Assembly: GCA_951406725.2 (NCBI GenBank)
Contig: OX597837.1
Coordinates: 41,106,001 to 41,170,000 of the forward strand
Source: Octopus vulgaris
Lineage: Eukaryota
Direction: 5' to 3'
DNA: 64,000 nucleotides
Shown here: piece after piece, positions 3,963-11,396 of the stretch
Position numbering within the stretch: the first letter of the stretch is position 1
Layout: each line of letters begins with the position of its first letter
Program-made: the position numbers and the translations under genes
The notes under the pieces: generated by a model
What the model saw: the letters and a program-made list of their open reading frames with translations, nothing else
Database searches by the model: none
Told to the model about the DNA's origin: nothing

Positions 3963-4071
3963 TACATGCTTATGTGGGTGATGCATATATTTTTGCTTTT
4001 GACGACGAATTATACATAACTGAATATTAAACTGAAGAATTACTCATCATTACATGCGTTCAGAAGAAGTG

Positions 4072-4164
4072 GATGAATAGTGACTTCGAAGTTAACGTTT
4101 GTTAACCGTCGTCGGACGGTCCTACGTTGATTAACTGGCCGAACTTTTCGAAGCCAACAGCATC
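4072..4164. repeat. ~93-bp imperfect palindrome, dual-hammerhead-like family, copy 1
   Basis: Arms GATGAATAGTGACTTCGAAG...GTCGGAC and GTCCTAC...TTCGAAGCCAACAGCATC are centred on 4118. Confidence 0.7.
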
Positions 4165-4460
4165 CCTCACACATACACACAGACATATACACACATATGC
4201 ATATATACATACAAACATATATATATATATATATATATATATATATATATATATATATATATATATATAAATTTATAAATATGGATAAGATAGATCTCAT
4301 CAAGTGGCCAGCATGGGAATAAAAACCTTACAAAGATAATAATTATTTAAAATTATAAATACCCTAATATATATATATATATATATATATATATATATAT
4401 ATATATATATATATATATACATATCTATGTGTGTGTGTGCGTTGCTTATAAATAAAAATG

Positions 4461-4554
4461 GTTGATAGTAATTACTTTGAAGTTTGGCTTCAGCCGCCGT
4501 CATCAAACTGTCCGTTGACGGTTACTGAACCGATACTTCGAAGTCACAAGCAAC
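4461..4554. repeat. ~94-bp imperfect palindrome, dual-hammerhead-like family, copy 2
   Basis: Arms GTTGATAG..ACTTTGAAGTTTGGCTTCAGCCGCCGTCATCAAAC and GTCCGTTGACGGTTACTGAACCGATACTTCGAAGTCACAAGCAAC are centred on 4509. Confidence 0.75.
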
Positions 4555-5675
4555 ATCTTCTTTGCGAAAATGAAAAACTTTGTTTAATTTCCTGAAAAGT
4601 ATGAGTGATGCCTTTCTTTAACGTTTGACTGCTTTTACATACAACTAAATGTAACATTAAATATACATACATATATACATACATATATACATACATACAT
4701 GTATACGTACGTATGTATATATATATGTATATATATATATATATATATATATATATATATATATATATACATATATGTATATATAGATATAGATATATTT
4801 ATACACACACACTTTATATCATATGTGTATATATATATATATACAATATTATATATACGTATATATAGGTATGCATATATATATAAACATAAATGTATGT
4901 ATTATGTCATGTATGTATATATAGATATATACACGTATGTATAACCGTGTATATATATATATATATATATATATTATATATGCATAAATATACATATATA
5001 TATATTCATATACATATGTATATATATTACATTGTGTTATATGATATTTTATATATATGTATAAGTATATATTATATCATATTTTATACGTATATTTATG
5101 TATATAAATGAATGTATACACACACACATATACACACATACACACACATCCAAACATAGATAATTTAACCGACGACCAGAGGTTGACCCAGGCCATGTCT
5201 AACTTAATAGGAACGATTGACAAGATCCGTAAAATAATTTTTTAAGTCACGTTTTATGGTGTCGTGGCCCTTTCAAGTAGGGAGTTGTTGCTAGCTGTGA
5301 TGTATTCCGGTATAAGTGACTCATCCCTTTATCTCGGTAACGAATTTTGTCCAGGTTTCATTTAAGGGTTTTTGGGATCTTTTTTTTTTTCTTTGATTTG
5401 TTTCTGTTGACAAAGTTAAATTGAGGAGAACCTGTTGTGGCGGGGTGGGGGGAAGAAATTTGAATTGCAGTGAATTTGTGGGTTGTTGCCGGCCTGAATT
5501 GTGTTAAGGGTTGATAACGGCACAACAGAGTCCCAGGTCAACCAAACACTTGGGAGCAGATTTGGTAGACGGAAACTGAAAAACGCCCAGCATGTGTGCT
5601 TATATGTGTATGTATATGTACATATATATATATATATATATATATATATATATATATATATATATATATTTATAT

Positions 5676-6104
5676 ATTCTTTTATTCTTTTACTTGTTTC
5701 AGTCATTTGACTGCGGCCATACTGGAGTACCGCCTTTAGTCGAGCAAATCGACCCCGGGACTTATTCTTTGTAAGCCCAGTACCTATTCTATCGGTCTCT
5801 TTTGCCGAACCGCTAAGTGACGGGGACGTAAACACACCAGCATCGGTTGTTAATCAATGCTAGGGGGACAAACACAGACACACAACACACACACACACAT
5901 ATATATATATATATATATATATATATATATATATATATATACGACAGGCTTCTTTCAGTTTCCGTCTACCAAATCCACTCACAAGGCATTGGTCGGCCAG
6001 GGACTATAGTAGAAGACACTTGCCCAAGATGCCACGCAGTGGGACTGACCCGGAACCATGTGGTTGGTTAGCAAGCTTCTTACCACACAGCCACTCCTGC
6101 GCCT
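5676..6104 (-). mobile_element. SINE family A, full length
   Basis: The tRNA-like head AGGCGCAGGAGTGGCTGTGTGG (A-box) is followed by GGGTCAGTCCC (B-box-like), an internal (TA)n(TG)n tract and the tail GACTGAAACAAGTAAAAGAATAAAAGAAT. Confidence 0.92.
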
Positions 6105-6113
6105 ATATATGTG

Positions 6114-6246
6114 TGTAAAAGTAAAAAAATACAAACTGGGACAAGAACGCGAAACATTTAGAAGACGACACAAAAAACACGGACGGGACATTCGAAGCCT
6201 TCAATCTTCAGTCAAGAACCGGATCATCCTAGCAATTTCGGCTGAT
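6114..6246. repeat. Unclassified interspersed repeat P1, short form
   Basis: Near-identical to 8717-8847 and, inverted, to 11546-11679. Confidence 0.85.
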
Positions 6247-6694
6247 ATGTATATATATACATACATACATACATACATACATACATACATACACCCACAC
6301 ATATAATCGTCTTTAAAGTGATTAAGGGTTAACTTTAGTGACGATTGTACGTATGCCTTTCGGTTTTAAAATGCGACCAGCTTCTTTAATAATAATAATA
6401 ATAATAATAATAATAATAATAATAATAATAATAATATATATATATATATATATATATATATATATATACATACACAAACATATACATACACATACATATA
6501 CATTATGATGATGTATATAACTATGCGTGTGTGTATAGATAGATAATGCTACAGCTATATATATATATTAACGCAAAAATTGAAAGGTGTATACAAATTT
6601 GCAATATAGTTGGACATATTGAATATGTATATATATATATATACATATATATATATATCTATATATATATATAAATATACACACATATATACAC

Positions 6695-8280: not shown

Positions 8281-8336
8281 TTTAAGTTTCGACCGGAGAT
8301 GGCTTAGCTTCCTGAAAACTTCGAAGTCACTATCAA
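8281..8336. repeat. Dual-hammerhead-like family, internally deleted copy 3
   Basis: Right arm GAAAACTTCGAAGTCACTATCAA with a remnant left arm AAGTTTCG. Confidence 0.55.
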
Positions 8337-8716
8337 GAATATTGTTGTTTCAGAATAATAAATTTGTACACTGCAAAATTATAGAGTAACCCATGAGATT
8401 AATATAAAACTGTTTTTATTATAACAGAACATAAACACAAATATTAATATATATATATATATATACTCACATGCATATATATATATATACACACATATAT
8501 ATTAACATGGTATATATAATATCCATATAAATCTATTAGGTATTATACAAACTAATATTAAATTCCATATTATGTTATATATGCTCTGTATATACACATG
8601 TAAGTATGGGTTAACGATAATATTGATGTATGGATAAATATACATATATATATATATGGATACATATATGTAAGTATAAATTTTTGCGTCTAGATGTGTG
8701 GGTGTGTGTCTATATA

Positions 8717-8847
8717 TGTAAAAGTAAAAAAATACAAACTGGGACAAGAACGTGAAACATTTAGAAGACGACACAAAAAACACGGTCGGGACATTCGAAG
8801 CCTTCAATCTTCAGTCAAGAACCGGATCATCCTCGCAATTTCGGCTG
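8717..8847. repeat. Interspersed repeat P1, short form
   Basis: Near-identical to 6114-6246 with the same ends. Confidence 0.85.
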
Positions 8848-8930
8848 TATGTATATATATATATACAGGTATATATATATATATATATATATACATATAT
8901 ATATATATATATATATATATTTATATATAT

Positions 8931-9029
8931 AGAAGGATACAGGATATACTGTTTCATTCAAGAGAAATCTTCAGGAAGCTGAGCTTCCTGAAGATTTCTC
9001 TTGAATGAAACAGTACTATAGCTCCTTCT
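8931..9029. repeat. Perfect 34-bp-arm palindrome inside (TA)n, each strand reading CTGAAGA...GAAAC
   Basis: 8947-8980 is the exact reverse complement of 8982-9015, with a 1-nt spacer. Pairing extends imperfectly to AGAAGGA/TCCTTCT. Confidence 0.95.
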
Positions 9030-10330
9030 ATATATATATACTCTGCTATGTATTGAGTACCTTACTTACTGTGGTTAACCCCGTATCAACCCGGGAACTA
9101 TATATATATATATATATATATATATATATATATATATATATATATATATATATATTTATATATATATATACATATATATATATATATGAATATATATATA
9201 TGAATATATATGTATATATATATATATACATATATATATATACATGCATTTATATGTATTTGTGTGTGTGTGCATATATATAACATTCGTACAATTTTGT
9301 ATAAGTATATATTTTTTACACACACACACACACACAACATCGCGCGCGCACATATGTACAGTCGAACTAATAAACATACATATGCGTGTGTACATGTGTA
9401 TACGTGTGTCCACATGTGTGTGTGTGCATTTGTGTGTGTCTCTGTGTCTGTGTGTGTGTCTCTGTGTCTGTGTGTGTGGCCGAGAACCTTACACAGCTTA
9501 TCAAAAACTCATTGTTCGCGCCTCAAACCTTCGCAGTTTGTTCAGTTTTAATTACGCGATTAATATCCTGTAATTAAAACGTTATTAAACCCCTTCCTTG
9601 ATTGCGAATAATTTTATAGCCACCAACCCGACTAATTTGCATATTCATTTCCCACTTTATCAATAGTTTGGTACGAAGGGACCATGTCACCGCGTCAGTT
9701 AAATGGCGTTTTCATTAGAGTGGAACGTGTGCTGGACATCAGGCCACTCACTCTTGCGTGACGGCTGCGCAAACTTTTCTGAATTACTCAATTGAGCCGT
9801 GGTCAGTCCGTAGTCAAACGCACACACATACATACAGATAAGAGTGCGTATGTATATATATATATATATATATATTTATATATATATATATATATATATA
9901 TATATATATATATATATATATATATATATATATATATATATATATATATATATATATACATATGTAAGTATGTGTGCATGTATGCATATATATATATGTT
10001 TTGTATATATATATATTGCAATAAGAAAATGGAGGGGATCAATAGGTGGTTCATCAACTTTTAGACATTATATTATGTTAACTTATTTATTTATTTATTA
10101 TTTACTAAAGTGATAATTATAATAATATACATACATATAACATATCATGCTTTACATATAAGATATAAAATATATTAATATATAAGGATACCAGTAATTT
10201 TTATAAGAAACATGAATATATATATATATATATATATATATATATATATGTGTGTATATATGTATATTAAACTGAAAAATGAATACTTTTGTTGGGCATA
10301 TATATTTATTACACTTTATCAAGATGAGAG

Positions 10331-10375
10331 GTTGATAGTGACTTCGAAATTTCGGTTTACTAGCTGACGGCAGAC
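10331..10375. repeat. Dual-hammerhead-like family, single arm, copy 4
   Basis: GTTGATAGTGACTTCGAAATTTCGGTTTACTAGCTGACGGCAGAC aligns with the left arms at 4072 and 4461. Confidence 0.65.
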
Positions 10376-11302
10376 GACGATTTAGTAAATTAACACATTA
10401 TATATTCCACAAACATATATATGTATGTATGTGTGTGCGCGTATACATACACACACACACACACACACACACACACACACACACACACACACACACACAT
10501 ATATATATATATATATATATATGTATGTATGTATGTATATATACATATATATATATATATATATGTATACGACAGGCTTCTTTTAGTTTCCGTCAACCAA
10601 TTTCACTCGTTAGTCGACAAAGAAGCTATAGCTAAGTTCATTGCCTAAGGTGTTACACAGTGCATGTGTATATATATATATTTATAAATATATATATATA
10701 TATATATGTATGTATGTATGTATGTATTTATTTATTTATATCTATATTTATATCCATATTTATATCTATATAAATATATGTATGTAACATATTGACAAGA
10801 AACATGATATGTCTTCTAAAAATCAATGGTTTGTCATTGATATCCGTGTGAGTGCTTGTGTATATATATCTATATATATATTGATATGCGTGAGCGTGCA
10901 TGTGTGCGTGTATATGCGTGTGTGTGTGCAATTTTGTACAAAAGTATATATTTATATTTGTATGTGTGTGTGTGCGTGTGTGTGTGTTTGATTGCATGTG
11001 CATTGTAAGTACACATACGTGTAATGTAAATCAATTACGTGATGATGCTTATCACATTAATTATGAATGGCGTATTATACATGTACGTAAATATGTGGAC
11101 ACGAGCGTCCATGTGTGTGTGTGTGTGTGTGTGTGTGTGTGTGTGTGTGTGTGCATGTGTGTGTGTGTGTCTATGTGTTTATATATTAATGATCGCTCTC
11201 TGCGTCGAGTTGTAAATACAAACAATTCAACATTAAACTGAAGGATTATTCAGTGCTGGTTTTGTTGTTGAGGACATATTTATTGCTGTTTAAGCAGAAC
11301 AC

Positions 11303-11396
11303 TGTTGACAGTGACTTCGAAGCTCAAAGTTTCGGCCCTTTGAAGTCGGTTGGATGACGCCTAAGGAAACCGAAAGTTTTAAAGTCGTTGTCAACA
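11303..11396. repeat. Dual-hammerhead-like family, copy 5
   Basis: Inverted ends TGTTGACAGTGACTTCGAAG..TTTCGG and CCGAAAGTTTTAAAGTCGTTGTCAACA. Confidence 0.7.

Follow-up and report, generated by a model that had tools for sequence, protein, structure and literature searches.

The 64-kb stretch of DNA analysed here (64,000 nucleotides, hereafter the window) contains, between positions 4026 and 11396, five related short inserts, E1 to E5, which we interpret as decayed head-to-head pseudo-long terminal repeat (pLTR) stubs of a Penelope-like element (PLE), that is, as 3′ end-pieces of one family that lack any open reading frame (ORF) and carry hammerhead ribozymes as passengers. We put the probability of this reading at about 0.7. 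Most likely, then, E1–E5 are a known type of genomic debris and not a new two-way RNA switch. Judged by its anatomy, their structure appears to be the one published for insertions of endonuclease-bearing PLEs, without the ORF: hammerhead-derived arms set head to head with their 3′ ends outward, a self-complementary junction, and a tail on one side only.

All five elements described in an initial annotation of this sequence were recovered within 4026–11396, and its confinement of the family to the first 12 kb held. A profile built from eight arms recovers these eight, by construction, and detected no further copy in the window below E = 1.8, which limits the family to 4–11.4 kb. A 16-nt core motif gave five matches against 0.13 expected, and at least five were reached in 0/100 shuffles. 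The inserts are each about 110–165 bp long and consist of the following parts, listed with strand and basis.

4026–4071, minus strand: one-sided tail of E1, 46 nt, internally shortened, ending in TTCAGTTTAAT (motif, tail model)
4072–4117, minus strand: tail-side arm of E1, a decayed type I hammerhead with C3 at 4115, box CCGACGA, GUC at 4084–4082 and a damaged second box (profile, hand-set registers)
4119–4164, plus strand: short arm of E1, showing the strongest decay, C3 at 4121; junction centred on 4118 (profile, shuffles, alignment)
4461–4508, minus strand: short arm of E2, C3 position at 4506, box TTGATGA, cleavage triplet followed by a 3-nt insertion; junction centred on 4509 (profile, shuffles, alignment)
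4510–4554, plus strand: tail-side arm of E2, C3 at 4512, GUC at 4543–4545 (profile, hand-set registers)
4555–4622, plus strand: one-sided tail of E2, 68 nt, end motif decayed, overlooked in the initial annotation (held-out score, p = 0.021)
8281–8290, minus strand: possible remnant, about 10 nt, of an inverted arm of E3, not significant (46/100 shuffles as good)
8291–8337, plus strand: single tail-side arm of E3, C3 at 8293, box CCGGAGA, GUC at 8326–8328 (profile)
8338–8403, plus strand: one-sided tail of E3, 66 nt, AATAAA inside, likewise overlooked (held-out score, 1/3000 control windows)
10266–10330, minus strand: one-sided tail of E4, 65 nt, AATAAA inside (motif, tail model)
10331–10375, minus strand: tail-side arm of E4, C3 at 10373, box CTGCCGT, GUC at 10342–10340; presumed centre at 10376 (profile)
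10377–10392, plus strand: possible short-arm stub of E4, matching its own stem II loop over 7 nt, not significant (14/100 shuffles as good)
11232–11302, minus strand: one-sided tail of E5, 71 nt, AATAAA inside (motif, tail model)
11303–11347, minus strand: tail-side arm of E5, box 1 lost, GAAA and GUC intact, 7 nt inserted into helix III; centre at 11348 (profile, hand-set registers)
11349–11396, plus strand: short arm of E5, C3 position at 11351, box TGGATGA, GUC at 11384–11386 (profile, shuffles)

The elements had been described as palindromes of about 95 bp, which is correct for E1, E2, and E5 (4072, 4461, and 11303; about 93 bp) and not for E3 (8281) and E4 (10331), which are essentially single arms. 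The arm-versus-arm score was equalled by 3, 0, and 0 of 100 shuffles for E1, E2, and E5, respectively, versus 46 for E3 and 14 for E4, and the folding z-scores were −1.8/−2.9 for E1, −4.9/−3.0 for E2, −4.3/−3.9 for E5, −0.06 for E4, and +1.2 for E3. Compared with the majority of the remaining arms, any one arm deviates at 11–37% of positions, indicating that the copies are old.

Hammerhead-derived arms and one-sided tails

Read outward from the centre, the majority layout consists of C(C/U)GAYGA, an extra base before G10.1, a G–C pair closing stem II, GAAA, the palindromic ACUUCGAAGU, and GUC. With the registers of the arms set by hand, box 1 could be scored in seven arms (C3 5/7, G5 6/7, A6 4/7, G8 7/7, A9 5/7), all of which carry an extra pyrimidine (C/T) between positions 9 and 10.1, followed by G10.1 in six. 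The counts over eight arms were 7/8 for C11.1, G12, A13, and A15.1 and 6/8 for A14, while on the cleavage side U16.1 and C17 were found in 7/8 and H17 in 8/8. The majority arm agrees with 11 of the 12 canonical hammerhead core positions, the exception being U4, and apart from this base it is identical at every core position to the published PLE hammerhead consensus (CUGANGAH G...C GAAAN-palindrome-NUH), whose marked features, as described in PMC4209133, are the base between 9 and 10.1, the G10.1–C11.1 pair, and a small palindromic helix III. Helix III of the family, ACUUCGAAGU, forms a perfect palindrome of 10 nt, and its dimer duplex has a predicted energy of −12.5 kcal/mol. The type I helix order was supported by a relaxed descriptor (stem II of at least 2 bp, stem I of at least 2 bp, one core mismatch allowed), which the majority arm fits and which was passed by 4–5 of 20,000 shuffles. 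On these sequence features we concluded that the arms probably descend from a PLE-type, type I hammerhead, in line with the initial annotation, which had recognized the self-complementary helix III typical of dimer-forming Penelope/metazoan hammerheads; its stem I, GACAGU:ACUAUC, includes a C–A mismatch as written. It had also stated that no copy keeps a perfect core, and every arm indeed proved defective on scoring: those with both boxes carry 2–5 mismatches, and the left arm of E5 is without box 1.

Rfam searches gave no hammerhead match for E2 or E5 and none among the 150 of 318 matches listed for positions 1–15000; the listed matches were to microsatellite or hairpin microRNA models only, below the gathering score. 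This negative carries no weight, because Rfam likewise failed to detect the clearer minimal hammerhead at 46257.

Beyond the ribozyme, a tail of 46–71 nt extends on exactly one side of all five elements and on none of the five opposite ends. Its 11-nt end motif, ATTAAACTGAA, occurs at 4026, 10266, and 11232 (three matches against 0.08 expected). The initial annotation had noticed this sequence in three elements and called it upstream; it is present there, but as the far 3′ end of the tail, and a decayed version lies in E2 and E3 as well. The latter was detected with a weight matrix trained on the terminal 22 nt of three tails (E1, E4, and E5), by which 90 nt beyond each of the ten ends were scanned and compared with 3000 control windows. 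The held-out right ends of E2 and E3 scored p = 0.021 and p = 0.0003, with motif offsets of 46 and 44 (24, 43, and 49 in the training set), versus p = 0.21–0.99 for the five opposite ends. A whole-tail profile (nhmmer) missed the E2 and E3 tails, and a by-eye look for a reading frame conserved through arm and tail revealed nothing consistent. The suspicion that the true unit is larger than the palindrome was thus borne out in 5/5 elements.

The tail also bears on whether E1–E5 could be DNA-type miniature inverted-repeat transposable elements (MITEs) with long terminal inverted repeats, in which the ribozyme look would be due to chance or inheritance; the initial annotation had named a plain MITE as its alternative. 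MITEs are short and non-coding with inverted arms, as E1–E5 are, and the AT-rich targets would suit them, too. This alternative fits poorly, however, because the ends are asymmetric in 5/5, one of them extending 46–71 nt without an inverted partner. Neither does it account for the ribozyme-derived arms, whose layout is rare by chance as judged from the shuffles above, and no constant target-site duplication was seen, though the copies are old. The MITE reading is already largely refuted by the one-sided tail, and of the explanations considered here we give it the least credence.

Folding predictions suggest what the ribozymes could do within such stubs. An ideal palindrome folds at −84.5 kcal/mol versus about +2 when a single arm is constrained to the hammerhead fold, and long hairpins on both strands are predicted for the real E1, E2, and E5, in agreement with the earlier proposal that a full-length transcript sequesters itself. 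Since a transcript through the whole palindrome comprises a single sense ribozyme along with its complete antisense copy, such read-through RNA is predicted to lock the ribozyme in one long hairpin, and the ribozymes in E1–E5 are therefore likely passengers. Self-sequestration is no sign of design, because any inverted duplication gives it.

Origin of the head-to-head structure

The arms stand head to head with 3′ ends outward, and an inverted copy at a palindromic junction is present in three of the five elements. The junction is the self-complementary GAC-N-GTC in the 5′ strand of stem I, just before C3. It lies 2–3 nt before C3, at the same place in E1 and E2 and, less clearly, at nearly the same place in E4 and E5. 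On the short-arm strand, a purine occupies the centre in 4/4 elements. This pattern fits either a fixed fold-back point of the parent or a single master unit.

Published PLE insertions offer a close parallel. They often have an inverted, 5′-truncated copy beside the 5′ end and a 30–40 bp tail, often at one end only (PMC8557442); inverted and direct pLTRs are described as overlapping, with palindromes at the junction and a usual head-to-head orientation, for which self-priming was proposed (PMC3846280). According to PMC11167929, a PLE protein cuts and extends the two strands of AT-rich DNA, the tail corresponds to the segment separating two reverse transcriptase (RT) start sites, and hammerhead cleavage is assisted by the protein and unnecessary for insertion in vitro. 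Opposite-strand hammerhead pairs are already known at truncated PLEs (PMC4209133). The initial annotation had favoured an ancestral unit of two back-to-back ribozymes acting on either strand; as the leading reading this gives way to the published PLE by-product, in which head-to-head arms and a one-sided tail are found together (PMC8557442, PMC3846280).

The PLE insertion process would have produced the E1–E5 palindromes in a few steps, modelled here on PLE biochemistry. The RT-endonuclease of the element would nick AT-rich DNA, and reverse transcription would start at either of two nearby internal RNA sites, so that the copy from the far site would carry the tail and the copy from the near site would lack it. 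Two such copies, or one copy and its fold-back, would become joined at the short GAC-N-GTC of stem I. The ribozyme of the parent would cleave after GUC, probably either dimerized through ACUUCGAAGU or aided by the protein of the element, while in the stubs it would be a passenger, the core bases having since been lost in every arm.

A competing explanation, improbable in our estimate, is that a PLE end gave rise, a single time, to a non-autonomous unit of about 160 nt comprising the palindrome and the tail, which thereafter moved as one piece, the tail being a signal for a PLE enzyme acting in trans. This amounts to the idea of the initial annotation with the tail added, and the hairpin would hold both ribozymes off. 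The constant or nearly constant junction (E1/E2 and E4/E5, respectively) and the polarity of the centre base relative to the tail in 4/4 elements agree with such a unit; so does the divergence of the short arms from the rest, which is higher (mean 0.28, n = 3) than that of the tail arms (0.17, n = 5). Moreover, the short arm of E4 seems to lack its outer portion, a loss expected from 5′ truncation of a unit, and pLTRs are described as able to act as cis signals in trans (PMC3846280). On the other hand, derived bases common to two short arms are few (0, 1, and 3 per pair), mutual identity is lowest among these arms (0.52–0.62), a fixed junction is also expected from the palindrome at the pLTR 5′ end (PMC3846280), and a second, unrelated-looking palindrome at about 8935–9030 has the same design. 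In addition, 0/13 contig pieces aligned to E2 (see below) cross the centre, a weak argument as the E2 locus itself was not matched either.

The stub reading was further set against host activity: single hammerhead-plus-tail copies, either truncated PLE ends or retrozyme monomers, would have been inserted, and template switching during host replication would later have duplicated one arm in inverted orientation. E3 and E4, being essentially single arms, speak for this, as do several internal micro-palindromes read directly from the arm sequence. Nevertheless, host events are unlikely to have struck the same junction three or four times independently, and the other solo hammerhead relics of the window have no hammerhead-containing inverted copy. 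We consider this origin very unlikely.

Several results weigh against the interpretation of E1–E5 as separately formed PLE stubs. The majority base at position 4 is C (four of seven arms; T in two and G in one) instead of the canonical U, so the CUGANGA given in the initial annotation was overstated, and U4C is a known hammerhead variant with much lower activity in vitro. A type I descriptor had been suggested as a check; the majority arm failed the initial version, which needed a stem II of at least 3 bp, and passed after relaxation to at least 2 bp, with registers set by hand. Stem covariation, another suggested check, gives no support: no compensatory change was found in stem II across seven arms (17/28 cells paired), as is expected for neutrally decayed copies. 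The nearly fixed junction and the polarised centre base would likewise result from a single master unit. The arms are barely more alike within elements (identity 0.64, n = 3) than between them (0.60, n = 12), and same-element pairs share one derived base each versus 0–3 between elements, so separate formation at each insertion is not demonstrated. Clear or common target-site duplications were not found, the flanks sharing only AT-rich words of 3–7 nt; the age of the copies is relevant to this lack, and duplications of PLEs are reported to be variable and often hidden in microsatellites. The tail, reaching 46–71 nt past stem I, is longer than the 30–40 bp published for PLEs. Neither an RT nor a GIY-YIG remnant was detected in the window, where 0/43 non-repeat frames of at least 70 amino acids match Pfam, and no parent element was found in it; consequently, the PLE link rests on anatomy.

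The stub reading also leaves the local cluster unexplained. For five points placed uniformly, a span of at most 7.4 kb has p of about 8e-4 (a post hoc value), and segmental duplication was ruled out as the source since the flanks of E1–E5 are not shared (self-BLAST). According to a review (PMC6765202), PLEs show a tendency to land within existing copies or next to them. It is conceivable, if rather doubtful, that palindrome and tail form a mobile unit of about 160 nt, the smallest PLE parasite, with two antisense-locked hammerheads and a tail recruiting the PLE enzyme, spread by such local hopping. If true, this would give the five insertions in 7.4 kb and add a minimal non-autonomous PLE class, none of which was found described in the literature searched.

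Beyond annotation, the value of E1–E5 is small, as they add one more hammerhead-bearing, probably Penelope-derived repeat family. They also serve as a warning that such stubs resemble MITEs or paired ribozyme switches. A genome-wide set could have a modest value for the question of how PLEs form head-to-head ends, by fold-back self-priming or by priming from both nicked strands, because every copy can be scored for where its junction lies, which base is at the centre, and which side bears the tail.

Comparison with known elements and sequence collections

The likeness of E1–E5 to the insertion unit of endonuclease-bearing PLEs, as described in PMC3846280, PMC8557442, and PMC11167929, extends over the head-to-head arms with 3′ ends outward, the palindromic shared junction, the one-sided tail, and the AT-rich or microsatellite surroundings. 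They differ from it in having no ORF between or beside the arms and no discernible target-site duplication, as well as in size: the arm is about 46 nt versus pLTRs of about 180–220 bp in Adineta PLEs, and the tail is 46–71 nt versus 30–40 nt. With the PLE type I hammerheads of PMC4209133 they share the box layout, the extra base between 9 and 10.1, the G10.1–C11.1 pair, and the palindromic 15.2–16.2 region, along with a short helix I, an AU-rich 3′ flank, dispersed dead copies, and opposite-strand pairs. Unlike these, E1–E5 have the majority U4C, a 4-bp helix II, and no intact copy in the window, and the palindrome of helix III is 6 nt (UUCGAA) versus the 2–4 nt usually cited. Non-LTR (animal) retrozymes, as described in bioRxiv 10.64898/2026.07.22.740005, likewise are PLE-related, short, and without coding capacity and carry a type I hammerhead, but they are direct tandem repeats with intact ribozymes, whereas E1–E5 are dispersed, inverted, in mixed orientation, and without an intact core. 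The divergence of the arms (Jukes–Cantor distance, JC, 0.12–0.50) would overlap the PLE expansion reported at JC 0.2 (PMC13282606) if the host is an octopus.

A family-specific pattern had 0 matches in metagenomes, three family motifs had 0 matches in the supplement of PMC8557442, and a general hammerhead pattern had 0 matches in viral contigs. The general pattern matched 15 metagenome loci, which were judged to be chance as none had both stem I and stem II; one match in a bacterial genome was rejected as chance, being without the upstream box. Part of the E5 stretch was found in 5 of the 24 sequencing runs listed, from two organisms, with no RNA run among those listed. Contigs from four sequencing runs gave 13 pieces aligned to E2, all less than 90% alike, nine on the arms and four on the low-complexity flank; none of them crosses the centre or matches the E2 locus itself. 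These pieces weakly hint at copies elsewhere in the two organisms, with no chance control, and are uninformative on expression.

Neighbouring relics in the window

The window is AT-rich (GC 0.27–0.44), consists of simple repeats to about 38%, and holds several dispersed short repeat families, which presumably resemble octopus short interspersed elements; it reads as animal non-coding DNA. The near-perfect head-to-head palindrome at about 8935–9030 lies between (TA)n tracts, folds with z = −11.4, and carries CUGAAGA (C3 at 8974 on the minus and 8988 on the plus strand) together with GAAAC-A-GUA on each strand. Its stem II is without the G–C closing pair and its stem I is not clear. It is unrelated in sequence to six of the seven arms tested, the right arm of E3 scoring p = 0.01, and it is younger than, and of a different family from, E1–E5. 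The same design in an unrelated-looking palindrome suggests a general, repeated process.

Three related solo minimal PLE-type hammerhead motifs are located at 46257 (+), 36808 (−), and 54303 (+), with GAAACGU and an extra A before stem II. Each is one core base off canonical, the last having the same U4C variant as E1–E5, and no inverted hammerhead-containing copy was found beside any of them. Their presence indicates that PLE-type elements were active in this genome. Hammerhead-like remnants of the form CUGAAGA...GGAAAC, without clear stem I or cleavage triplet, were also seen at 7359–7385 (+) and 52412 (−).

Another repeat family, 77–97% alike, is found at 6127–6246, 8730–8847, 11546–11665, 12308–12495, and 29461–29681. 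Four of its five copies lie inside 6.1–12.5 kb, all apparently truncated at one end, and it contains CTGAAGA followed by TTCGAA-TG(T/A)C with no proper GAAA box. Together with E1–E5 and the 8935 palindrome, it makes 4–12.5 kb a local hotspot of relics. A further repeat, 7063–7235 and 11730–11935, is 83% alike over the first 72 nt, with a possible short fragment near 10018, and occurs only in this region among the matches listed. Beside (TA)n tracts, inverted repeats in which no hammerhead core was seen are located at about 21105–21245 (a palindrome with arms of about 60 bp), 30930–31000 (a palindrome with 25-bp arms), and 20850–21000 (41-bp arms around a spacer of about 57 nt), and these may be either MITEs or fold-back stubs of hammerhead-less elements. 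Finally, 2429–3020 is a tandem trimer of a common dispersed repeat with a unit of about 185 bp, 85–94% alike.

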